NCBI GenBank assembly: GCA_964507055.1
Contig: CAZDOJ010000001.1
Location: 337,313 to 401,312, forward strand
Direction: 5' to 3'
Origin: an uncultured Gammaproteobacteria bacterium
GTDB lineage: Bacteria > Patescibacteriota > Microgenomatia > Levybacterales > UBA12049
DNA: 64,000 nt
Made by a program: the position numbers and the translations under genes
Notes under the pieces: model-generated
Told to the model about the DNA's origin: nothing
Database searches by the model: none
The model's input: only the letters and a program-made list of their open reading frames with translations
In this document: in pieces, positions 29,721-39,881 of the stretch
Layout: each line of letters begins with the position of its first letter
Position numbering within the stretch: position 1 is the stretch's first letter

Positions 29721-30419
29721 ATGCCTCACATGGCAAGTTTTAATAGAGATAATCAATCAGGCGGAAATAGAAATTTTGGCAAACCACGATTCAATAATAA
29801 TCGCTCAGAACGTCCAGAACTTTTCAAAACTACATGTGCAAGTTGCGGTAATACGTGTGAAGTTCCATTTAGACCAACAGGAAGCAAGCCTGTCTATTGT
29901 CGTGATTGTTTCAAGAATCAACCAGCTGATGCTTCACGTCGATCCGATTCACGAAGTTTTGATAGACCACAGCAAGGAGATCGCCAGATGTTTGATGCAG
30001 TATGCTCAAACTGTGGTAATGCATGTCAGATCCCATTCCGTCCATCACAAGGTCGAGATGTTTTCTGTTCACGATGCTTTGATATGAACAATGGTGAAAC
30101 ACACAGACCAAGCCGTTCAAATGATCGTCCATCTTTTAAACGTGATGAAAACCAAGGCAGATCAAACGATGCCCCAAACTACAAAGCACAATTTGAAGCC
30201 TTAAATGCAAAAATGGATAAAATTCTAGAATTACTTACTCCAGCACAAGTTGCGACAGAACCATTAGAATCTATCCTCGAAGAAGAAGTAATTGAGGAAG
30301 CAGTTGCTGAAGCTTTGGCAAAACCAGAAGAAAAGAAGCCAAAGAAAAAAACAGCATCAAAGACTCCAGCAAAAGAAAAACCAGATACAAAGAAAAAATC
30401 TACTTCAAAAAAGAAATAA
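29721..30419 (+). CDS. basic protein with two tandem zinc-ribbon motifs and low-complexity R/G/N-rich and K/E-rich tails; putative nucleic-acid-binding protein
   Basis: Two copies of C-x2-C-x14-C-x2-C-F, each containing VPFRP/IPFRP: CASCGNTCEVPFRPTGSKPVYCRDCF and CSNCGNACQIPFRPSQGRDVFCSRCF. The protein ends in a K-rich tail. Confidence 0.5.
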   Translation: MPHMASFNRDNQSGGNRNFGKPRFNNNRSERPELFKTTCASCGNTCEVPFRPTGSKPVYCRDCFKNQPADASRRSDSRSFDRPQQGDRQMFDAVCSNCGNACQIPFRPSQGRDVFCSRCFDMNNGETHRPSRSNDRPSFKRDENQGRSNDAPNYKAQFEALNAKMDKILELLTPAQVATEPLESILEEEVIEEAVAEALAKPEEKKPKKKTASKTPAKEKPDTKKKSTSKKK

Positions 30420-30976: not shown

Positions 30977-31378
30977 CTATTGATTATCAACGCTTTGAGA
31001 AACTTCTACTTTATCAGTAGGTTTACCAATAAGTAATAATTTTACGATCCCATAAGCAACAATCGCATACACAGCCATTGCTACAAAAGTTGACCATTCG
31101 ATCACACTGCCTTGTGTAGCTGTAATGCCAAAAATTCCTGCAAATGGTTGTGCAAATGGTTCGCTTAAACCGTAAACAAAACTCACAAAGTCACTTGATG
31201 GATTTGCTCCGAGTAACTTAAATACGATCCTGAAGGCTAAAAGCACTTCAATCACACCAAGGATATACCAAACTACTTGATGAACACGAAAAATTGCTTT
31301 TTTCTGTTGGTATGCTTTTTGTGATGGGTCTGTACTGCCTGTTTGCACTATTTTTTCTCTTACTTCAACTTGCTCCAT
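30977..31378 (-). CDS. YggT-like small integral membrane protein (paralog of 12082..12540)
   Basis: LLGANPSSDFVSFVYGLSEPFAQPF is paralogous to the 12082 product. The start at 31378 is preceded by a strong SD (GGGAGGTGA), which is rare in this window. Confidence 0.5.
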   Translation of the reverse strand: MEQVEVREKIVQTGSTDPSQKAYQQKKAIFRVHQVVWYILGVIEVLLAFRIVFKLLGANPSSDFVSFVYGLSEPFAQPFAGIFGITATQGSVIEWSTFVAMAVYAIVAYGIVKLLLIGKPTDKVEVSQSVDNQ

Positions 31379-31527
31379 ATAATCACCTCCCTTCTCTATG
31401 GTTGAGTATAGTCGTTGATAATAATAACTTAGTAATAAATATGGTATTAAGCAGATCAATTATTTTATTAACTAGACGAAGATCATTCATTTTTTGTATA
31501 CTAATTATATGTGCTAAGCACGCTACT

Positions 31528-34083
31528 ATGAAATCTGTCCAACTTTCTCTCCTCTTTAAAAGTATTGTTTTTACGCTCATTGCATTAGTATGGTTAACAC
31601 AAATGAATCCTGTCTACGCGGCCGATCCTGAGCTTGTGGGTGGAAGTTCTGTAAGTGGCTCAAGCGGGGTTGCGACACCTATAACCGACCTTCAAGTGTC
31701 AGGAACTGGAAATCCTACTGTTCCAGTGAAGCTTCGAGTGAGCAGCGGAACTCTTTCTATGTCGATAACAACAGGTTTGACATTTACAGGTGGATCTACG
31801 GGTTCAACATTACAATTTAGCGGTTCCAAAGATAACGTAAATGCTGCTCTGGCGACATTAACCTACACACGATCTGGTGCTGGGAGTGATACATTGGAAG
31901 CATCATTGGTGAATGCGGGAGAAGTATTTTTCTCAGACAATGGACATCTTTATGAATATGTTTCTTTTACTGCGACTTGGACCAATGCTAATACCAACGC
32001 ACAGGGCAGAACAAAATATGGAGCAACTGGGTATTTAACGACAATTACTTCACAAGCTGAGAATGATTTCGTCGCAGCCCGTCTTTTGAATGCAGGTTGG
32101 ATGGGAGCAAGTGATTCATCTCTCGAGGGTGATTGGAAATGGGTAACCGGCCCTGAATCTGGAATATCGTTCTGGTCAGGATTATCGGGTGGATCTGCAG
32201 TTTCTGGTAGATACGCAAATTGGGGCACGGGTGAACCAAATAATGCGGGTGATGAAGATTGTGCCCAATTTCTTACCGGTGGTACTGGAAAATGGAATGA
32301 TCTTCCATGTAGCACAACAACTTTGCCAGGATATGTCGTCGAATATGGTAGTAGTACGCCATTGGATGTCTCCTCGAAAAATGTTTCCATCACAACTGTC
32401 GTTAATCCAACAGCAAGTAGTTTTACTCCAGCTGATAATGCAACCAATGTCACAGCAAATGCAAATTTAGTAATTGTCTTTAGTACATCCATCACAAAAG
32501 GTACTGGAAGTATACTTTTGAAAAAAACATCAGATGATTCGACTGTTGAAACGATTGATGTCACAAGTAGTCAAGTTACTGGTGGAGGAACTGCGACAAT
32601 AACAATTAATCCCAATATGACATTTGATGAAAACACTGGATATTACGTCACAATTCCTGGCACAACTTTTCGAGATGGTTCAAGTAATTACTATGCTGGA
32701 ATTTCCACCAAAACGACGTGGAATTTTACAACCGGTGATTTCACATCTCCATCATTAAGTTCTGTCACAGCATCTTCAATTGGTGATACAACAACAACTA
32801 TTACCTGGACTACCAATGAGAATGCTTCGACAAGAATTTCCTATGGTTTGACTGACGCATATGGTACGACTACATCCGAGACTGATACATCACCTCGTGT
32901 AACCGCACATACAGTTGTACGAACTGGCTTACTTGCTTGTACAACCTATCATTACTCTGTCTATTCACGCGACGCCTCTTCAAATACCTCGACCTCAGAA
33001 GACAAAACATTTACAACAACTGGTTGCCAATCCAATACTCCTCCTGTGAATGCAACTTCAAGTGCTGTTACTGTAAGCTCTGGAGGGACGACTACTTTGA
33101 CTGAAGGCACAAATCAAATCAGTGTTGAAACTCCAAGTAACTTTACTAATACAGCATCAACAGTTGTCATTCAGGTAAAGGCTTTAGAAGATACGCCAAT
33201 ACTAAATACACTTGGTCGACCAGCAGATGTGCCAAATGAAGTGGGCAATATTGTCTTTGATGTCAAAGCAATTATTAATGGGACAACAGTTCTAGATAAT
33301 TTTAATGCCCCTGTCACAATTACCTACCAATATACTGACGCAGATGTTGCGGGACTCGATGAATCTACTTTTTGGCTTTATCACTATCACAATGGTGCTT
33401 GGACACCGCTTAACTCATGCAACATAACCACAGCCACTAATACGATTTCGTGTACAACGCAAAGCTTCTCTATTTTCGGATTGTTTGGAAGGCAAAAAGC
33501 ATATGCCTCAGAAGTAAAAAATCCATCATGCACTATTACCAAACCCGATCATGCACCTGATCTTTTCCAAATTGATACTTCAAAGAATAAAGCGACATTG
33601 CACTTTACACCACTGATGGATAATGTTACCAATTATTTTGTGGCGTATGGATATTCTGCTGGAGACGAACGATTTGGAGTTCTTACCCAACAAGGACCTT
33701 CGACAGGTGTACTGTCATATACAATTAATGATCTCTCTCCCAATACGACATACTATTTCAAAGTGCGAGCACAAAACGATTGCATGCCAGGAGATTGGGG
33801 AAATACGATGTCTGTCAAAACGACCAATGGATCAACAGTTAAAAATTATAAAAATTTCGTGGCTCGTGTAATGAGTTATACACCACGACAAACAACAACA
33901 GTTACCAATGCTAAAACAACTTCAAATAAAACGTGTGAATATACAGTGAAGAGTGGTGATTCTCTTTGGAATATTTCACAATCCAAATTAGGATCTGGTG
34001 CAAAATATACAGAAATTATGAAATCAAATAACCTTTCTTCTCCATCACTCAATGTTGGACAAAAATTAAAAGTCGGTTGCTAA
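31528..34083 (+). CDS. secreted multidomain surface protein: signal peptide, C-type lectin-like domain, Ig-like (Big_5/SbsA-type) domain, two FN3-like domains, C-terminal LysM
   Basis: Signal peptide MKSVQLSLLFKSIVFTLIALVWLTQMNPVYA. The CTLD at about 31942..32346 has WMGASD...GDWKWVTG...YANWGTGEPNN...EDCAQ...KWNDLPC...GYVVEY. The LysM at about 33940..34077 (YTVKSGDSLWNISQ...GQKLKV) is flanked by Cys residues. Confidence 0.7.
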   Translation: MKSVQLSLLFKSIVFTLIALVWLTQMNPVYAADPELVGGSSVSGSSGVATPITDLQVSGTGNPTVPVKLRVSSGTLSMSITTGLTFTGGSTGSTLQFSGSKDNVNAALATLTYTRSGAGSDTLEASLVNAGEVFFSDNGHLYEYVSFTATWTNANTNAQGRTKYGATGYLTTITSQAENDFVAARLLNAGWMGASDSSLEGDWKWVTGPESGISFWSGLSGGSAVSGRYANWGTGEPNNAGDEDCAQFLTGGTGKWNDLPCSTTTLPGYVVEYGSSTPLDVSSKNVSITTVVNPTASSFTPADNATNVTANANLVIVFSTSITKGTGSILLKKTSDDSTVETIDVTSSQVTGGGTATITINPNMTFDENTGYYVTIPGTTFRDGSSNYYAGISTKTTWNFTTGDFTSPSLSSVTASSIGDTTTTITWTTNENASTRISYGLTDAYGTTTSETDTSPRVTAHTVVRTGLLACTTYHYSVYSRDASSNTSTSEDKTFTTTGCQSNTPPVNATSSAVTVSSGGTTTLTEGTNQISVETPSNFTNTASTVVIQVKALEDTPILNTLGRPADVPNEVGNIVFDVKAIINGTTVLDNFNAPVTITYQYTDADVAGLDESTFWLYHYHNGAWTPLNSCNITTATNTISCTTQSFSIFGLFGRQKAYASEVKNPSCTITKPDHAPDLFQIDTSKNKATLHFTPLMDNVTNYFVAYGYSAGDERFGVLTQQGPSTGVLSYTINDLSPNTTYYFKVRAQNDCMPGDWGNTMSVKTTNGSTVKNYKNFVARVMSYTPRQTTTVTNAKTTSNKTCEYTVKSGDSLWNISQSKLGSGAKYTEIMKSNNLSSPSLNVGQKLKVGC

Positions 34084-34116: not shown

Positions 34117-34845
34117 ATGGAAGATCATACAATTCGACTCAATAAATATCTTGCCAATCTCGGTATCTGTGCAAGACGTGAAGTCAAACAACTGCTTAAA
34201 GAAAAAATAATTACCGTTAATGATGAGCGAGCTAAAGAACCAGGTATTCGCATTGATCCGCAGAAAGATGCTATACGAATTGATGGTAATAAAGTTAAAT
34301 CTCCTACATTAGTCTATTATGTACTTAACAAGCCAAAAGGAATTGTTTCGACAACAGCTGATGAATTTGGACGCAAAAATGTAACGACATTGGTTCCGAA
34401 AGATCAACGCGTCTATCCCGTAGGACGATTAGATAAAGACACCACAGGATTAATTATCCTTACCAATGATGGTGAATTAACTAATCTGCTTACCCATCCT
34501 CGGTATCATGTCGATAAAGTGTATAGGTTGGATATCGCAGGGCGATTGGATAAATTCCAACTCAAGGCATTGCGAGATGGAGTCCTTCTTGACGATGGTA
34601 TCACCTATCCAGCAGAGGTTAAAATAATAAGTGAATCAAATGGAAAATCGATTGTAGAAATGAAGATTCATGAAGGACGAAATCGGCAAATTAGAAGAAT
34701 GTGTGAGACTGTCGGAGCGACTTTAACTGCATTGCAGCGAGTTCGGTTTGGGCCAATTGCCTTGAGTGGACTCAAAGAAGGTACCTATCGAGATCTTACC
34801 AAAAAGGAAATTGATTCACTTAAAAGTGTTGCACAAAAGGTATAA
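34117..34845 (+). CDS. rRNA pseudouridine synthase (RsuA/RluB/RluF family)
   Basis: The N-terminal S4 domain (RLNKYLANLGICARREVKQLLKE) and the catalytic VGRLDKDTTGLIILTNDGE block. Confidence 0.85.
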   Translation: MEDHTIRLNKYLANLGICARREVKQLLKEKIITVNDERAKEPGIRIDPQKDAIRIDGNKVKSPTLVYYVLNKPKGIVSTTADEFGRKNVTTLVPKDQRVYPVGRLDKDTTGLIILTNDGELTNLLTHPRYHVDKVYRLDIAGRLDKFQLKALRDGVLLDDGITYPAEVKIISESNGKSIVEMKIHEGRNRQIRRMCETVGATLTALQRVRFGPIALSGLKEGTYRDLTKKEIDSLKSVAQKV

Positions 34846-34894
34846 ATTACCGCTTGCACCAATATTTCCTATAGGCTATAATTTATTTATTCCT

Positions 34895-37237
34895 ATGCAA
34901 ATATTTAAGAAACTATTTTTACTATTCATTTTTTCATTTTTGCTTATCGCACAAACAAATGTCGCTCAGGCACAAGTCGCTTCAACACGCCTTGGGGGCA
35001 TGAATCTCGAAGGATATTGCCGCAGTCTGAATCAAGGTGGATCAACTTTAAACGGTAATACATGGCAATGTGAATCAGGTTCAACAATTAATTTGGATGC
35101 TGCATGTCGATGGCAATATAATAACGCTACATCAGTTGCACGACAAGAAGTTACAAATAATCCGTATACGTGGGCATGTTATACAGCAGGATCGACACCA
35201 ACTCCTACAATTTCTCCAACTCAAGCACCTACGCCAACACAAATTGTCTCGACACCAACTCGAGCAGCAAGTCCTACTCCGACGAGAATGGTTACTCCGA
35301 CTCCGTTGCCCACAACGGGAACACTTGTTATCTTTGATGATGCTCTGGCATCAGGATGGACAGATGCTTCTTATCGAGCAACTAATACTATCGTGACAAC
35401 TCCAGTTGGCAATGGCACTCGATCTATTTCATCTGTATTGCAATCCGATGGCGGATTTAATCTGCAATCAATCAGTGGCATCCAAACAACAAATAATACG
35501 GTTTTACATTTTATGCTTCGAGCATCTGCAGCAAATCAGCGTTATGAAGTCTATGTAGATACTGTATATGGACAACCTTTGCGTGCACCAGTTTCTCTCG
35601 CAAATTATGGGGGCCAACCAACAACAACAGCATGGCGAACCTATGATATCCCTTTAAGTGATTTAGGCGGTGGAAATGTTTCGCTGCGTGACATCGCAAT
35701 CCATGATGAATCAGGTACTAACCAGCAGGCAGTTTTTATCGACCAAGTAGAACTTCGATTGATTAATGTTTCCGTCACTCCGACGTTATCACCAACTGTA
35801 ATTCCAACTATCTCAGTTACCCCGACTCCAACAAGAACAATTACGCCTACACCCACTGCGACTCCAGCTGCAGGAGCAACTGTAACAGTATTTGCAGATG
35901 CACTCGCAAATGGATGGACAGATGCGTCATATGCAACAACAAATACAATTGTTACAAATCCAGTTGGAAGCGGAACAAATGCTATTGCTTCAACAATTAA
36001 TCGAGATGGTGGCTTTGATCTGCAATCTGTGAATGGTGTACTAACTTCGAGTAATACAGTGTTGCACTTTATGCTCCGTGCATCAACAGCAAATCAACAA
36101 TATGAAGTGTATGCTGATACACAATACGGTCAGCCACTTCGTGCACCAGTTTCTCTCGCAAATTACGGTGGTCAACCTATAACAACTGCATGGCGAACCT
36201 ATGATATTCCATTGAGTGATTTAGGTGCGACCAATGTCTCTCTTCGTGACATCGTTATTCACGATGCTGTTGGTGCAAATCAAGGAGTCGTTTATATTGA
36301 TCAAATTGAGTTACGCTCAGTCAGTGGATCTGTAACACCAACCGCTATGCCAACAGTTGCAATAACCTCGACCCCATCTCCAACGCCGATTGCTAATACA
36401 GGAGTGAGAAAAAGTATTTATGCAATGACTCCGCAAGAAGTTACGCGACTAACAAATGCATTCAATACTATTCGTGCAAATGGTGTCTATCAGGATTTTA
36501 TGAATCGTCATATGCAATCGATGATGACATTGACCCAACCTAACGATCCTACGACACTTAGAAATGTTGCACATCGTGGACCATCATTCTTACCTTGGCA
36601 CCGTTCAATTACAAGAGAGTTTGAATTAGCTTTACAATCTGCAGATCCTTCGGTGACATTACCATATTGGCCATTTGAACAGGAGACTCCTGGGCAATTA
36701 CCACGGGTTTTCTCCGCAGCCTATTTTGGTGGTGATGGAAATCCTTCATTTGGAAATAGAGTTATCGATGGACCATTTGCGTCTTGGCAAATTACTCGTA
36801 TGGTTGGACGCGATCCCGAAGGGCAACCAACCGCTCCAACGCAAGCTAATGTAAATGCTCTGATGCAATATACAAACTACGATTCTGCTCCATATAATGA
36901 AACTTCAAGTGGTTTTAGAAATGGTATTGAAGGATGGATTGGAGCAAATGGACAGTGGAGTATGCATAATCGTATCCATGCATATGTCGGCGGGGATATG
37001 CTTCCTCGAGATGATATGAGTACTAATGTCGTTAATGATCCAATCTTTTGGCTCGTTCATGCAAATATTGATCGCATCTGGTGGCAATGGCAACAAACTC
37101 GTGGCATCAATAATTATCAACCAGTCAGTGGTGGGCCGACTGGACATAATTTAAATGATCGAATGCAGTTCCTCAATAGCAATACAACTCCTGCAAGTAA
37201 TTTGGATATCCGAACGATGGGATATTCCTATCAGTAA
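34895..37237 (+). CDS. secreted tyrosinase (type-3 copper polyphenol oxidase) with an N-terminal Cys-rich module, PT-rich linkers and two tandem copies of an unassigned ~148-aa domain
   Basis: Signal peptide MQIFKKLFLLFIFSFLLIAQTNVAQA. The CuA site HRGPSFLPWHRSITREFE fits the tyrosinase CuA pattern H-x4-F-L-x-W-H-R-x2-T-x3-E. The CuB site DPIFWLVHANID fits D-P-x-F-[W]-x2-H-x3-D, together with HNRIHAYVGG. Confidence 0.85.
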   Translation: MQIFKKLFLLFIFSFLLIAQTNVAQAQVASTRLGGMNLEGYCRSLNQGGSTLNGNTWQCESGSTINLDAACRWQYNNATSVARQEVTNNPYTWACYTAGSTPTPTISPTQAPTPTQIVSTPTRAASPTPTRMVTPTPLPTTGTLVIFDDALASGWTDASYRATNTIVTTPVGNGTRSISSVLQSDGGFNLQSISGIQTTNNTVLHFMLRASAANQRYEVYVDTVYGQPLRAPVSLANYGGQPTTTAWRTYDIPLSDLGGGNVSLRDIAIHDESGTNQQAVFIDQVELRLINVSVTPTLSPTVIPTISVTPTPTRTITPTPTATPAAGATVTVFADALANGWTDASYATTNTIVTNPVGSGTNAIASTINRDGGFDLQSVNGVLTSSNTVLHFMLRASTANQQYEVYADTQYGQPLRAPVSLANYGGQPITTAWRTYDIPLSDLGATNVSLRDIVIHDAVGANQGVVYIDQIELRSVSGSVTPTAMPTVAITSTPSPTPIANTGVRKSIYAMTPQEVTRLTNAFNTIRANGVYQDFMNRHMQSMMTLTQPNDPTTLRNVAHRGPSFLPWHRSITREFELALQSADPSVTLPYWPFEQETPGQLPRVFSAAYFGGDGNPSFGNRVIDGPFASWQITRMVGRDPEGQPTAPTQANVNALMQYTNYDSAPYNETSSGFRNGIEGWIGANGQWSMHNRIHAYVGGDMLPRDDMSTNVVNDPIFWLVHANIDRIWWQWQQTRGINNYQPVSGGPTGHNLNDRMQFLNSNTTPASNLDIRTMGYSYQ
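35324..36320 (+). repeat. intragenic tandem duplication (two ~440-bp units separated by a PT linker) inside the tyrosinase gene
   Basis: Unit 1 (35324..35765) and unit 2 (35878..36320) are about 80% identical at the DNA level. They share identical stretches such as cgtgcaccagtttctctcgcaaatta and gcatggcgaacctatgatat. Confidence 0.8.
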
Positions 37238-37257
37238 AAATACTTTATACTAATTGT

Positions 37258-37821
37258 ATGAATCGATATATTTTATTCGCCGTTGCTCTCATTGGATTAC
37301 TTATTCTTTCTCCACAACAAAGCTTTGCGGCATATTCTGCGTCAGATGGTGAGGTCAAGGGAACACTTGAAATTACACCAAAAGACCCACCGTATGCCGG
37401 GTTACCACTCAATTTAAAATTTCAATTTTCTGATACACCTCAAGGGTTTACGTTGCGAAATTGTAATTGCCAATTAAGCGTTGAAGAGCCAGGGCGACTT
37501 CCTTCAAATATCCCCTTAACATTGCAAAACGAATCAGGCCCTGATGTAAACTTTGTTTCTGTACCCTACCTTTTTCCAAGTAATGCCAACTATAAACTCG
37601 TCATGAATGCACAACCAAAGGAAACAAATGCATTCGTTCCATTTACTCTTTCTTGGGATGTCACAGTACAAGAGAATAAACATCTTGTTCCCTATACAAG
37701 TCATGAAGACAAGAATGATTTTCGTTATCTCGGTATAGCAATTCCAGTTGGTATCGCAGTACTTTTTATCCTTTTCTTAGCCTTCAGATACTTCAGAAAG
37801 CATCGGATTAAAAATAAATAA
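37258..37821 (+). CDS. secreted, C-terminally membrane-anchored protein of unknown function, cotranscribed downstream of the tyrosinase
   Basis: Signal peptide (MNRYILFAVALIGLLILSPQQSFA) and a C-terminal TM with a basic tail (RYFRKHRIKNK). The start is 20 bp after the tyrosinase stop. Confidence 0.45.
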   Translation: MNRYILFAVALIGLLILSPQQSFAAYSASDGEVKGTLEITPKDPPYAGLPLNLKFQFSDTPQGFTLRNCNCQLSVEEPGRLPSNIPLTLQNESGPDVNFVSVPYLFPSNANYKLVMNAQPKETNAFVPFTLSWDVTVQENKHLVPYTSHEDKNDFRYLGIAIPVGIAVLFILFLAFRYFRKHRIKNK

Positions 37822-37906
37822 TAGTTGTACGTCAGCTTACATCAATTGTTGTCGTTTGTATGTACATTTGTTATATTTGGTTCAAATGCGTAACATTATA
37901 CACACA

Positions 37907-39520
37907 ATGTCAAAGAAAACTTTTCATCCTATTGTCGGAGGTGGTGAAATGGGCGAACGAATCAGAACCTTCAACTGGGCAAAAACTGAATTAGGTCCTA
38001 TCAATACATGGTCACAGAGTTTACTTACTGCAACTAATATTGTCCTCCAATCCCCTGTCCCACTTGTCATGCTTTGGGGCAAAGATGGCATCATGATTTA
38101 TAACGATGCATATTCACAATTTGCTGGTGCAAGACATCCTTTTCTTCTTGGATCAAAAGTGCTTGAGGGATGGCCTGAAGTTGCGGATTTTAATAGCAAT
38201 GTTATGAAGAAGGGATTGCGGGGGAAAACACTCTCTTATAAGAATCAACGATTGGTACTCTATAGAAATAATGTTCGTGAAGAAGTCTGGTGTGACCTCA
38301 ATTATAGTCCGGTTATTGATGAACACGGTAAGTCTGCTGGCGTCCTTGCTATTGTTGTTGAGACAACACAACGAGTACTTGCACAAGAGAAACAACAGAA
38401 AGCTGAAGAAGAACTACAAGCTTCAAAAGATCGTCTCCAAGATCTTTTTATGCAAGCTCCAGCAGTTATTACTGTGCTTTGGGGAAAGAATCACGTCTTT
38501 GAATTAGCAAATCCACTCTACATGGAGTTAATTGGCCCTGAGAGAAAGATTATTGGCAAACCGATACGAGAAGCACTTCCTGAATTAAAAGGTCAAGGTT
38601 TTTTTGAACTTTTGGATAATGTTTATAAAACAGGTAAAACATTTCTTGGGAATGAGATATTGGTTAAACTTGCTCGAAGTAGAAAGAATAAAGACCTTGA
38701 TCAAGTCTATTTAAACTTTGTATATCAACCTATTATCGGTTCAAAGAAAAAAGTAGAAGGGATTTTTGTTCATGCTGTGGATGTTACCGATCAAGTACTT
38801 AACAAGAAAAAAATTGAAGAACTGTCTCGACAGAAAGACGACTTTTTAGGCATTGCATCGCATGAATTGAAAACGCCGGTAACGAGTATTAAAGCATATG
38901 GACAAGTACTACAACGAATGTTTAAAAGCGAAGGTAATGATAAAGGCGTTGCACATCTTGCTAAAATGGATGCACAAGTAAATCGATTAAGTAATCTTAT
39001 CGGAGATTTGCTTGATGTCACCAAAATTCAATCAGGTCGATTACAATTCCATGAAGAACACTTTGATTTTAATCATGTTGTAAATGAAGTTATAGAAGAA
39101 ATACAGCGAACGACTGATAAACACAGGATTATTAAAAAGCTTGATAAAACCAAGAAATTATATGGAGATCCTGAAAGAATTGGCCAGGTTCTAATTAACT
39201 TGATGACAAATGCTATTAAGTACTCGCCAAAAACTGATAAAATTGTTGTATCAACCAATGTTGATGCGAAATCAGTCACACTTTGTGTCCAAGATTTTGG
39301 AGTTGGTATCCCGAAAGATAAAAAGGAAAAAGTATTTGAACAATTTTTTCGAGTAAGTGGACCAAAACAAGATACATTTCCAGGGCTAGGATTAGGGTTG
39401 TATATATCAAGCGAGATTATTAAGCGTGAAGGTGGTAGAATCTGGGTTGAGAGTAGAGAGGGCAAGGGATCGACATTTTGTTTTACCTTGCCAATAAAAA
39501 GAACACCCAAAAAGAAGTAA
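37907..39520 (+). CDS. cytoplasmic PAS/PAC sensor histidine kinase
   Basis: Two PAS-like regions, HisKA (ASHELKTPVTSIKAYGQVL) and HATPase_c (GLGLGLYISSEIIKREGGRIWVESREGKGSTFCFTLP), with no TM segment. The start is ambiguous between 37856, 37886 and 37907. Confidence 0.8.
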   Translation: MSKKTFHPIVGGGEMGERIRTFNWAKTELGPINTWSQSLLTATNIVLQSPVPLVMLWGKDGIMIYNDAYSQFAGARHPFLLGSKVLEGWPEVADFNSNVMKKGLRGKTLSYKNQRLVLYRNNVREEVWCDLNYSPVIDEHGKSAGVLAIVVETTQRVLAQEKQQKAEEELQASKDRLQDLFMQAPAVITVLWGKNHVFELANPLYMELIGPERKIIGKPIREALPELKGQGFFELLDNVYKTGKTFLGNEILVKLARSRKNKDLDQVYLNFVYQPIIGSKKKVEGIFVHAVDVTDQVLNKKKIEELSRQKDDFLGIASHELKTPVTSIKAYGQVLQRMFKSEGNDKGVAHLAKMDAQVNRLSNLIGDLLDVTKIQSGRLQFHEEHFDFNHVVNEVIEEIQRTTDKHRIIKKLDKTKKLYGDPERIGQVLINLMTNAIKYSPKTDKIVVSTNVDAKSVTLCVQDFGVGIPKDKKEKVFEQFFRVSGPKQDTFPGLGLGLYISSEIIKREGGRIWVESREGKGSTFCFTLPIKRTPKKK

Positions 39521-39521
39521 T

Positions 39522-39881
39522 ATGAAAAAAAGAACAATAATGGTTGCCGATGATGATCCTGCAATTGTCGATGCATTGAAATTGATGCTCGAATTTGCAG
39601 AATACAATGTCATTACAACTGAAGATGGAAGCGATGTTCGAAACCTTAAAGGTAAACTGCCAGACCTATTACTTCTGGATATTTGGATGTCCGGAGAGAA
39701 TGGTCGAGAAATTTGTAAAACCCTCAAAGCACAGCAATCAACAAAAAATCTTCCTATAATTCTTATTTCAGCCAGTCGTGAAGTGGAAAAGTCTGCAAAG
39801 GAAGCTGGGGCTGAAGATTTTATTGCAAAACCGTTTGAAATGGATGATCTTTTAGAAATGGTAGAAAAGTATATAAACTAA
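39522..39881 (+). CDS. stand-alone response-regulator receiver (CheY-like) protein
   Basis: DDD acidic pocket (MVADDDPAIV), phospho-acceptor LLLLDIWM and KPF. There is no output domain, and the gene starts 2 bp after the kinase stop. Confidence 0.85.
   Translation: MKKRTIMVADDDPAIVDALKLMLEFAEYNVITTEDGSDVRNLKGKLPDLLLLDIWMSGENGREICKTLKAQQSTKNLPIILISASREVEKSAKEAGAEDFIAKPFEMDDLLEMVEKYIN

Follow-up and report, generated by a model that had tools for sequence, protein, structure and literature searches.

How might a tyrosinase that leaves the cell unfolded obtain its copper outside it? The question is raised by two genes on the forward strand, 34895..37237 and 37258..37821, which form the unit analysed here and lie in a 64-kb stretch of contig CAZDOJ010000001.1 (the window). 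The source is a small-genome, Levyibacteria-like bacterium of the Candidate Phyla Radiation (CPR), and an O2-dependent copper oxidase is not usually expected in such small-genome, largely fermentative organisms. Tyrosinases require assistance in obtaining copper. We know of only two copper-supply solutions described for bacterial tyrosinases, the MelC1 caddie and PpoB2, and, to our knowledge, essentially nothing is known of CPR metal physiology. The reading that we favour, with a probability of about one half, is that the first gene would encode a polysaccharide-targeted extracellular phenol oxidase and the second a membrane-anchored accessory protein (the partner) that donates copper to the apo-tyrosinase.

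A modular secreted tyrosinase

Judged from its sequence, the first gene product is securely a genuine type-3 copper phenol oxidase. The Pfam profile PF00264 (Tyrosinase) matches residues 531-734 of the 780-aa protein at E 8.5e-35, scoring 121.5 bits where the cutoff is 22.6 and covering positions 3-213 of the 214 in the profile, and the copper-binding CuA and CuB motifs quoted in a preliminary description of this DNA are all present. The six His residues align, six out of six, with the copper-ligand His of the caddie-dependent Streptomyces avermitilis tyrosinase (PDB code 6j2u, chain B), so that the profile comparison and the ligand alignment proposed in that description came out in its favour. 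Searching PDB sequences with the catalytic domain (phmmer) retrieved the same enzyme at E 8e-49, followed by those of S. castaneoglobisporus (1wx2, E 2e-47) and Bacillus megaterium (4p6r, E 2e-45). In the alignment the Streptomyces enzyme has FRNHLEGW and HN where the window protein has FRNGIEGW (with E679) and HN (with N692, at HisB1+1). Glu and Asn at these sites have been associated with the monophenolase activity of bacterial tyrosinases, and Asn191 is entered as the activity controller in a published table of tyrosinase residues (PMC10526336). The C-terminal lid domain is absent, the window protein ending about 58 residues past the last ligand.

The NCBIfam MelC2 equivalog NF047834 scored 191.3 bits, below its cutoff of 450, making the window domain clearly a relative of MelC2 by profile score rather than an equivalog; a weaker NCBIfam match was to the o-aminophenol oxidase BagH/FevF. 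Homologues 57-87% identical and of the same architecture are found in several genomes. By these comparisons the catalytic domain itself is ordinary, MelC2/TyrBm-like and close to the Streptomyces and Bacillus enzymes. It is preceded in the same chain by a series of further modules, and the layout of the locus is as follows.

34895..37237, + strand: tyrosinase gene, 780 aa and stop codon (Pfam match; identity to the public protein P0001)
34895..34972, + strand: Sec-type signal peptide, residues 1-26, MQIFKKLFLLFIFSFLLIAQTNVAQA (sequence; the only hydrophobic segment of the tyrosinase)
34973..35194, + strand: 4-Cys module, residues 27-100 (recurrence in other proteins; alignment)
35195..35311, + strand: Pro/Thr linker 1, residues 101-139 (67% P/T/S)
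35312..35770, + strand: beta-jelly-roll like that of carbohydrate-binding modules (CBM), copy 1, residues 140-292 (AF2, Foldseek)
35771..35869, + strand: Pro/Thr linker 2, residues 293-325 (70% P/T/S)
35870..36328, + strand: CBM-like beta-jelly-roll, copy 2, residues 326-478 (about 71% identity to copy 1)
36329..36400, + strand: Pro/Thr linker 3, residues 479-502 (62% P/T/S)
36401..37237, + strand: catalytic domain, residues 503-780 (Pfam, PDB alignment)
36509-11, 36572-4 and 36599-601, + strand: CuA ligands H539, H560 and H569 (alignment with 6j2u_B)
36965-7, 36977-9 and 37058-60, + strand: CuB ligands H691, H695 and H722 (alignment with 6j2u_B)
37238..37257, + strand: intergenic spacer, 20 bp, without a terminator-like hairpin
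37258..37821, + strand: partner gene, 187 aa, starting 20 bp after the tyrosinase stop

The signal peptide, four-Cys module and three linkers (62-70% P/T/S) were correctly recognised in the preliminary description. Its further claim, of two copies of an unassigned domain of about 148 aa, holds as regards the duplication; the domain can now be assigned to a CBM-type beta-jelly-roll. This was assessed through an AlphaFold2 (AF2) model built on 31 copies of the module, which reached a predicted local distance difference test (pLDDT) score of 96.2. Foldseek placed the model closest to the CBM8 of Dictyostelium discoideum (7t7y; E 1.3e-9, template modelling score 0.82, root mean square deviation 2.2 Å), with 21% identity over 151 columns, and CBM11, CBM30, CBM29 and CBM4 were the next-best folds. 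In all there were 130 PDB matches at E<=1e-3, the best 50 of which were nearly all CBMs or CBM-bearing glycan enzymes. Besides the close fold, these families have in common with the window modules that they are used as modules attached by Pro/Thr linkers in secreted hydrolases, but the sequence identity to CBM8 is too low for assignment to a CAZy family. The window copies themselves gave no significant Pfam match; distant copies of the domain, scanned singly, matched CBM_4_9 (3e-9), CBM30, CBM_11, MAM and CIA30, all of which we take to have galactose-binding-like jelly-roll folds. On the modelled fold, then, the repeat is securely a carbohydrate-binding-type module, and glycan binding, leaving aside the identity of the ligand, would be expected of it.

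Both kinds of N-terminal module are mobile. A hidden Markov model (HMM) of the repeat finds it in one to three copies in related tyrosinases, and also in GDSL esterases/lipases, glycoside hydrolases of families GH5 and GH44, a polysaccharide deacetylase, phosphoesterases and PQQ-type dehydrogenases. Since the module is shared with esterases, GH5, GH44 and deacetylase proteins of the same bacteria, the surface targeted would be a plant, host or other cell-wall polysaccharide. The 4-Cys module likewise occurs in one to three copies in related tyrosinases, and in GDSL lipases/esterases and PQQ/beta-propeller proteins; its aligned copies have invariant C16, C33, C45 and C69 (module numbering) together with Trp, Gln and Tyr residues. 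Neither singly nor as a profile did it match Pfam or the PDB, and it is probably a small disulfide-bonded binding module. The modules have been shuffled among the tyrosinases: protein P0010 combines one CBM-like module with three 4-Cys modules, P0005 carries three CBM-like modules but lacks the 4-Cys module, and the enzyme at locus L021 is without a CBM. An unusual combination is seen in P0011 and P0012 (1208-1231 aa), in which precomputed Pfam matches and the repeat HMM place a Peptidase_S8 (subtilase) domain in the same chain as a CBM-like module and a tyrosinase domain.

The architecture differs, as had been suggested, from the single-domain tyrosinases of Streptomyces and Bacillus. Streptomyces MelC2 (1wx2, 6j2u) is the closest solved catalytic relative, with identical ligand spacing, Asn at HisB1+1 and no lid, and has a small accessory gene in the same operon. 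However, it is a single domain of about 280 aa without a signal peptide of its own, exported according to the literature together with MelC1, whereas in the window enzyme a Sec signal of its own is followed by a 4-Cys module and two CBM-like modules. The B. megaterium enzyme TyrBm (4p6r, 3nm8), from a monoderm source, is similar over residues 2-277 of the 278-aa query domain (E 2e-45) but is a single domain with no CBM and no need of a caddie. A literature search that was not exhaustive found no report of natural CBM-tyrosinase fusions or of CPR tyrosinases. The multi-module secreted architecture is new in that we found no description of it, yet it is built on the usual plan of secreted enzymes that bear CBMs. 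A natural tyrosinase with cellulose-binding-type modules bears on phenolic turnover in plant litter and soil, and a CBM-tyrosinase amounts to a ready-made immobilisable biocatalyst.

The partner and its family

Downstream by 20 bp, as described before, begins the gene for a 187-aa protein with a signal peptide and a single C-terminal hydrophobic helix. The signal peptide comprises residues 1-24 (...SFA/A) and the one transmembrane helix residues ~156-180, with a spacer before it and a basic tail. In the AF2 model (pLDDT 79; core about 90) an eight-strand immunoglobulin-like (Ig-like) beta-sandwich (~24-138) precedes the anchor helix. The top Foldseek matches of this model were the periplasmic copper proteins CrdA, FetP/P19/FtrA and HftA, the best at a weak E of 1.5e-3; because the Ig-like sandwich is a generic fold, these predicted copper-protein neighbours are only suggestive. 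CrdA, the best structural match, we take to be CopC-like. The protein contains a CxC motif formed by C69 (37462-4) and C71 (37468-70).

Profile searches relate the partner neither to MelC1 or PpoB2 nor to any curated copper-protein family. Its ectodomain gave no Pfam match even at E<=10, bearing out the earlier statement that a MelC1-like caddie is absent, and the full protein gave none at E<=0.01. Homology to MelC1, PpoB2, CopC, YcnI or PCuAC was rejected, no corresponding Pfam or NCBIfam matches being obtained at permissive thresholds with the partner and 40 family members; in particular, PF04234 and PF07987 were absent for the partner and from the 25 families listed of the 35 matched by the 40 members at E<=10.

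A word-indexed search with the partner returned only a handful of relatives. Exhaustive HMMER searching with an alignment of these yielded 1393 representative clusters, 1001 of them at E<=1e-10. The members are nearly all 165-200 aa long and share one layout, of signal peptide, sandwich and C-terminal anchor. Of the members checked, none could be assigned significantly to a Pfam or NCBIfam family; PDB sequences yielded no relatives with the family profile, and metagenome contigs scanned with the partner alignment gave no matches. In a family alignment of 141 sequences the CxC is invariant (141/141). A His directly follows the predicted signal-peptidase Ala, and so would be the N-terminus of the mature protein, in 124 of the 141; a second His, in an LHIDPxDxP motif, is present in 131, and Asp residues 30, 43 and 59 are conserved. 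Pairing of an N-terminal His with a second one is what marks copper sites of the histidine-brace type, for example those of CopC and lytic polysaccharide monooxygenases, YcnI using a monohistidine variant of the brace (PMC8424229, PMC10952591). The open reading frame (ORF) in the window matches the profile of the 141 sequences at 2.3e-48 (hmmsearch) and retains C69, C71, D30, D43, D59, F106, P107 and Y112. From the order of the predicted strands we would guess at two sites in the fold, with the His site and the group of D30, D59 and the CxC lying at opposite ends of the sandwich.

CopC/PcoC and YcnI resemble the partner in being small extracytoplasmic beta-sandwich proteins, and the wider family comes nearer to them through its two His residues and through genes adjoining YcnI. 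They differ in having no sequence relationship to the partner and no invariant CxC; both family His residues, moreover, are missing from the window protein.

A scan of species-representative genomes with the family found nine loci (L008-L016), all CPR by title or content. Their titles include Saccharimonadales, Microgenomates and Woykebacteria, and several read "uncultured Gammaproteobacteria". The latter (L008, L009, L011, L013 and L014, among them the 1.61-Mb chromosome OZ246394.1) are titled 'uncultured Gammaproteobacteria bacterium' and have CPR-type gene content; the closest named relatives of their proteins are Candidatus Levyibacteriota, and these records appear to be mistitled. At each of the nine loci the family member directly follows a membrane protein, of about 520 aa in eight and called at 374 aa in L014, where the figure comes from a greedy ORF call. 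This membrane protein has a Ferric_reduct domain in both loci scanned, and in L009 a weak YtkA-like match was also obtained. Downstream of the family member, again in nine of nine, is a protein of about 210-245 aa with an AHV(V/T/A)VxP N-terminus, separated from it in four loci by a small membrane protein; in both loci scanned this was a DUF1775/YcnI match (E ~1e-24). A secreted protein with a PKD domain is also present in most of the nine. Examples of the conserved cluster are L012:3400-7571 and L009:3426-7590. YcnI has a C-terminal membrane anchor. It binds Cu(II), and the construct crystallised was a C-terminal deletion, YcnIdeltaC (PMC8424229).

From its gene content, the PKD/Ferric_reduct/CxC-His/YcnI cluster looks like an undescribed CPR copper-acquisition operon. 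The N-terminal His, second His and CxC, and the fixed place beside YcnI and a ferric-reductase-like protein, make this family of about 1400 clusters, which neither Pfam nor NCBIfam contains, a strong candidate for a component so far missing from CPR copper uptake. The 64-kb window holds no second family member and none of the YcnI/ferric-reductase operon genes. L009, however, lies on OZ246394.1, a chromosome that also bears a tyrosinase/partner pair 87% identical to that of the window; as both are present there, the tyrosinase-linked partner is a paralogue of a canonical copy and not its replacement.

Proposed copper delivery and the competing explanations

The two genes bear the marks of an operon: they are on the same strand, 20 bp apart, with no terminator in the spacer (terminator scan) and no strong promoter between them (a single promoter-like match, at chance level, in the promoter scan), and their adjacency is conserved at 3-20 bp. 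They are thus expected to be co-transcribed. Partner homologues lie directly 3' of the tyrosinase at 20 bp in the window/L001 and in L002/L003, 5-20 bp in L004/L005, 9 bp in L007, 3 bp in L017 and 20 bp in L020. A Joint Genome Institute contig carrying P0005 has a 190-aa protein, without a Pfam match, 7 bp 3' of the tyrosinase, and this is probably a further partner homologue. The pair is present in at least six distinct sequence contexts, and the flanking genes are wholly different among the window/L002, L004/L020 and L007 groups, from which it follows that adjacency has been selected rather than inherited as synteny. Functional coupling of tyrosinase and partner is likely. In a neighbour-joining tree the tyrosinase-linked partners fall in one clade, comprising 17 of the 141 sequences. 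Three members have Met-rich inserts (GGSMGSMNMAP, AAMANMNMP and PMMRSMKM) in the loop after the ancestral second-His position, and MxM/MxxM-type Met motifs are typical Cu(I) binders.

At L021 (2007-2543) and L022 (604-1140) the slot after the tyrosinase is occupied by another protein, of 178 aa, the two being mutually homologous (39% identity, E 1e-32). They have an N-terminal anchor and a Met/His-rich stretch (HEGMQMDGMSEGKMHEEM) and are negative with the partner HMM. This protein is possibly an analogous replacement of the accessory gene, in which case it would support the view that exported tyrosinases want a membrane-tethered, metal-binding helper. At L005:8800-9135, L019:6609-6944 and L020:3545-3880 a conserved 111-aa protein with an N-terminal anchor lies directly 3' of the partner; it is absent from the window.

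The mechanism that we propose would run as follows. Sec exports unfolded proteins, and Tat signals carry twin arginines. Since inspection of the tyrosinase signal peptide finds no twin-arginine motif, the enzyme is expected to pass through the membrane in an unfolded, copper-free state, and copper insertion should therefore take place outside the cell. CPR bacteria are commonly regarded as having no outer membrane, so a membrane-tethered chaperone would be an obvious way to hold the copper donor at the site of export. The partner, descended from a family of extracytoplasmic proteins that is found CPR-wide and predicted to handle copper, would be displayed by its C-terminal anchor on the outer face of the cytoplasmic membrane. 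It would bind copper through C69 and C71, with help from the Met-rich loop in some orthologues, and pass it to the newly exported apo-tyrosinase, as a functional analogue and not a homologue of MelC1 and PpoB2. The loaded enzyme would then act at a distance, held on a glycan surface by the two CBM8-like modules and the 4-Cys module, while the type-3 copper domain turned mono- and o-diphenols into quinones. The predicted copper binding and transfer rest, for the window protein, on the CxC, ancestry and context. The preliminary description had suggested a role in copper delivery or anchoring, and conservation of the pair, together with the YcnI operon context of the wider family, strengthens that suggestion.

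Both in gene order, tyrosinase first and membrane protein second, and overall, the closest match to this mechanism is the PpoB1/PpoB2 pair of Marinomonas mediterranea. COG5486 proteins, the PpoB2 group, are polytopic, whereas the partner, for which Pfam gave no match, consists of a beta-sandwich ectodomain on one C-terminal anchor, and its assignment to the COG5486/PpoB2 type was rejected. PpoB2 is a membrane protein that specifically supplies copper to the tyrosinase of the same operon, and COG5486 comprises putative transmembrane metal-binding proteins (PMC2855505). Like PpoB2, MelC1 is a tyrosinase-specific copper chaperone encoded in the same operon as its enzyme (PMC2855505, PMC10526336). 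In comparison with MelC1, the accessory gene here is downstream instead of upstream and encodes a membrane-anchored, Ig-like product in which no MelC1 similarity could be detected; classification as a MelC1-like soluble, upstream-encoded protein was rejected in view of that gene position and of the C-terminal anchor. For cysteine-dependent copper insertion into a type-3 site there is a precedent in the C-terminal CxxC of the Aspergillus oryzae pro-tyrosinase MelB, although that motif sits in an attached lid domain and the CxC of the window on a separate membrane protein.

A broader proposal is more tentative, and we would sooner expect it to fail than to hold: that the partner is a third, evolutionarily independent type of tyrosinase metallochaperone, which discarded the His site and kept a CxC for Cu(I) hand-over, and which arose from an undescribed CPR-wide family of membrane-anchored, extracytoplasmic cuproproteins (N-terminal His plus invariant CxC) that acquire copper together with YcnI and a ferric-reductase-like protein. 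If true, such a third accessory type would show how a Sec-exported, unfolded enzyme is metallated outside a cell without a periplasm.

Several observations weigh against copper delivery. What weakens it most is the loss, from the window partner, of the family's strongest copper signature, His25 being replaced by A25 and His38 by E38; the N-terminal His is absent in 13 of the 17 members of the tyrosinase-linked clade. The CxC could be structural or redox-active instead, and the fold matches, as noted above, are weak and to a generic sandwich. The B. megaterium tyrosinase, nearly as similar to the window enzyme as those of Streptomyces, needs no caddie (PMC10526336). Nor is the association obligatory. 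P0053 (L019:6001-6606) lies in a locus syntenic with L004/L005/L020, sharing the 111-aa membrane protein, TruB, patatin, DEAD helicase and Fic genes, but has no tyrosinase upstream, implying either loss of the tyrosinase or its later insertion beside a resident partner gene. P0058 (L018) is not adjacent to a tyrosinase either, and tyrosinases P0010 and P0011 are followed by other genes in place of a partner. Downstream of P0010, a CBM-tyrosinase, are encoded an MntP-family metal exporter and a Cu/Zn superoxide dismutase (Sod_Cu) (L006:8906-10000).

Loss of the family His ligands in the tyrosinase-linked clade would suit an explanation in which the partner has no copper role and is a surface dock or anchor, holding or organising the tyrosinase at the membrane. 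A single C-terminal anchor bearing an Ig-like ectodomain, a common protein-protein interaction fold, agrees with this, as does conservation of the gene pair. Yet the tyrosinase already has three targeting modules on long Pro/Thr linkers, pointing to action away from the membrane, while the CxC stays invariant, Met-rich inserts appear in this very clade and the replacement gene of L021/L022 is likewise Met/His-rich. We consider such docking unlikely, although it fares best among the alternatives.

Next to it, and also unlikely, comes general copper or metal handling of the kind expected of the paralogues, with a loose or historical tie to the tyrosinase. The wider family is not tyrosinase-linked, L018 and L019 furnish clade members without an adjacent tyrosinase, and the synteny of L019 with tyrosinase loci means that the partner may be the older resident. 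This explanation has to contend with the recurrence of adjacency at 3-20 bp in neighbourhoods that share no other genes, with the separate clade and altered ligand set of the tyrosinase-linked proteins, and with the separate canonical copy, in the YcnI operon of L009, on the close relative's chromosome OZ246394.1.

We give appreciably less credence to the partner as a caddie-like occluder of the active site until release, or as a shield, by thiol or ectodomain, of the producer's membrane against quinones. The tyrosinase has no C-terminal lid of its own, and 12 of the 13 His-less clade members have Tyr or Phe at position 26, beside the predicted signal-peptidase site; a precedent exists in the Streptomyces caddie, which supplies both copper and an active-site-blocking Tyr (PMC10526336). 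Against this, the partner resembles MelC1 neither in sequence nor in fold, two Cys would make merely a stoichiometric quinone trap, and an inhibitor of a secreted enzyme needs no membrane anchor. Finally, that the window protein is no working tyrosinase, but a haemocyanin-like O2 binder, an o-aminophenol oxidase-type enzyme or a decayed copy, is very improbable: the low MelC2 equivalog score (191 against 450 bits) and the weaker BagH/FevF match are outweighed by the full-length domain, the six His with E679 and N692, the conservation of the same architecture at 57-87% identity, and best single-domain PDB matches that are bona fide tyrosinases.

Gene starts and neighbouring genes

The longest ORF listed for the tyrosinase is 34766..37237, with a GTG start and 823 aa. 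Over its first 43 codons, however, this ORF runs into the end of the preceding gene, a pseudouridine synthase (34117..34845; S4 and PseudoU_synth_2 in Pfam), which leaves a 49-bp gap before the ATG at 34895. This ATG is the biological start, giving a product of 780 aa, since it places the Sec signal peptide at the N-terminus, since the public-data protein P0001 (780 aa) is 100% identical, and since homologues have equivalent starts; the start proposed earlier thus stands. Upstream of it a candidate promoter can be read.

34854..34882, + strand: candidate promoter, TTGCAC-17 nt-TATAAT, ending 12 nt 5' of the ATG (sequence reading; weak)

Its -35 hexamer agrees with the consensus at only three of six positions, for which reason the promoter scan does not list it.

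Directly downstream of the partner are genes for a PAS-domain histidine kinase (37856..39520, +) and a stand-alone response-regulator receiver (39522..39881, +). These are syntenic in L002/L003 and not at the other tyrosinase loci, so they probably lie outside the conserved unit. On the other side, 31294..34083 (+) encodes a large secreted surface protein with C-type lectin, Big_5, fn3/purple-acid-phosphatase-N and C-terminal LysM domains; it is syntenic in the close relative L002, and its true start is probably downstream of the TTG listed. Further upstream, 29721..30419 (+) encodes a 232-aa protein with two CxxC...CxxC zinc-ribbon-like repeats (CASCGNTCEVPFRP...CRDCF) and a very Lys-rich C-terminal tail.

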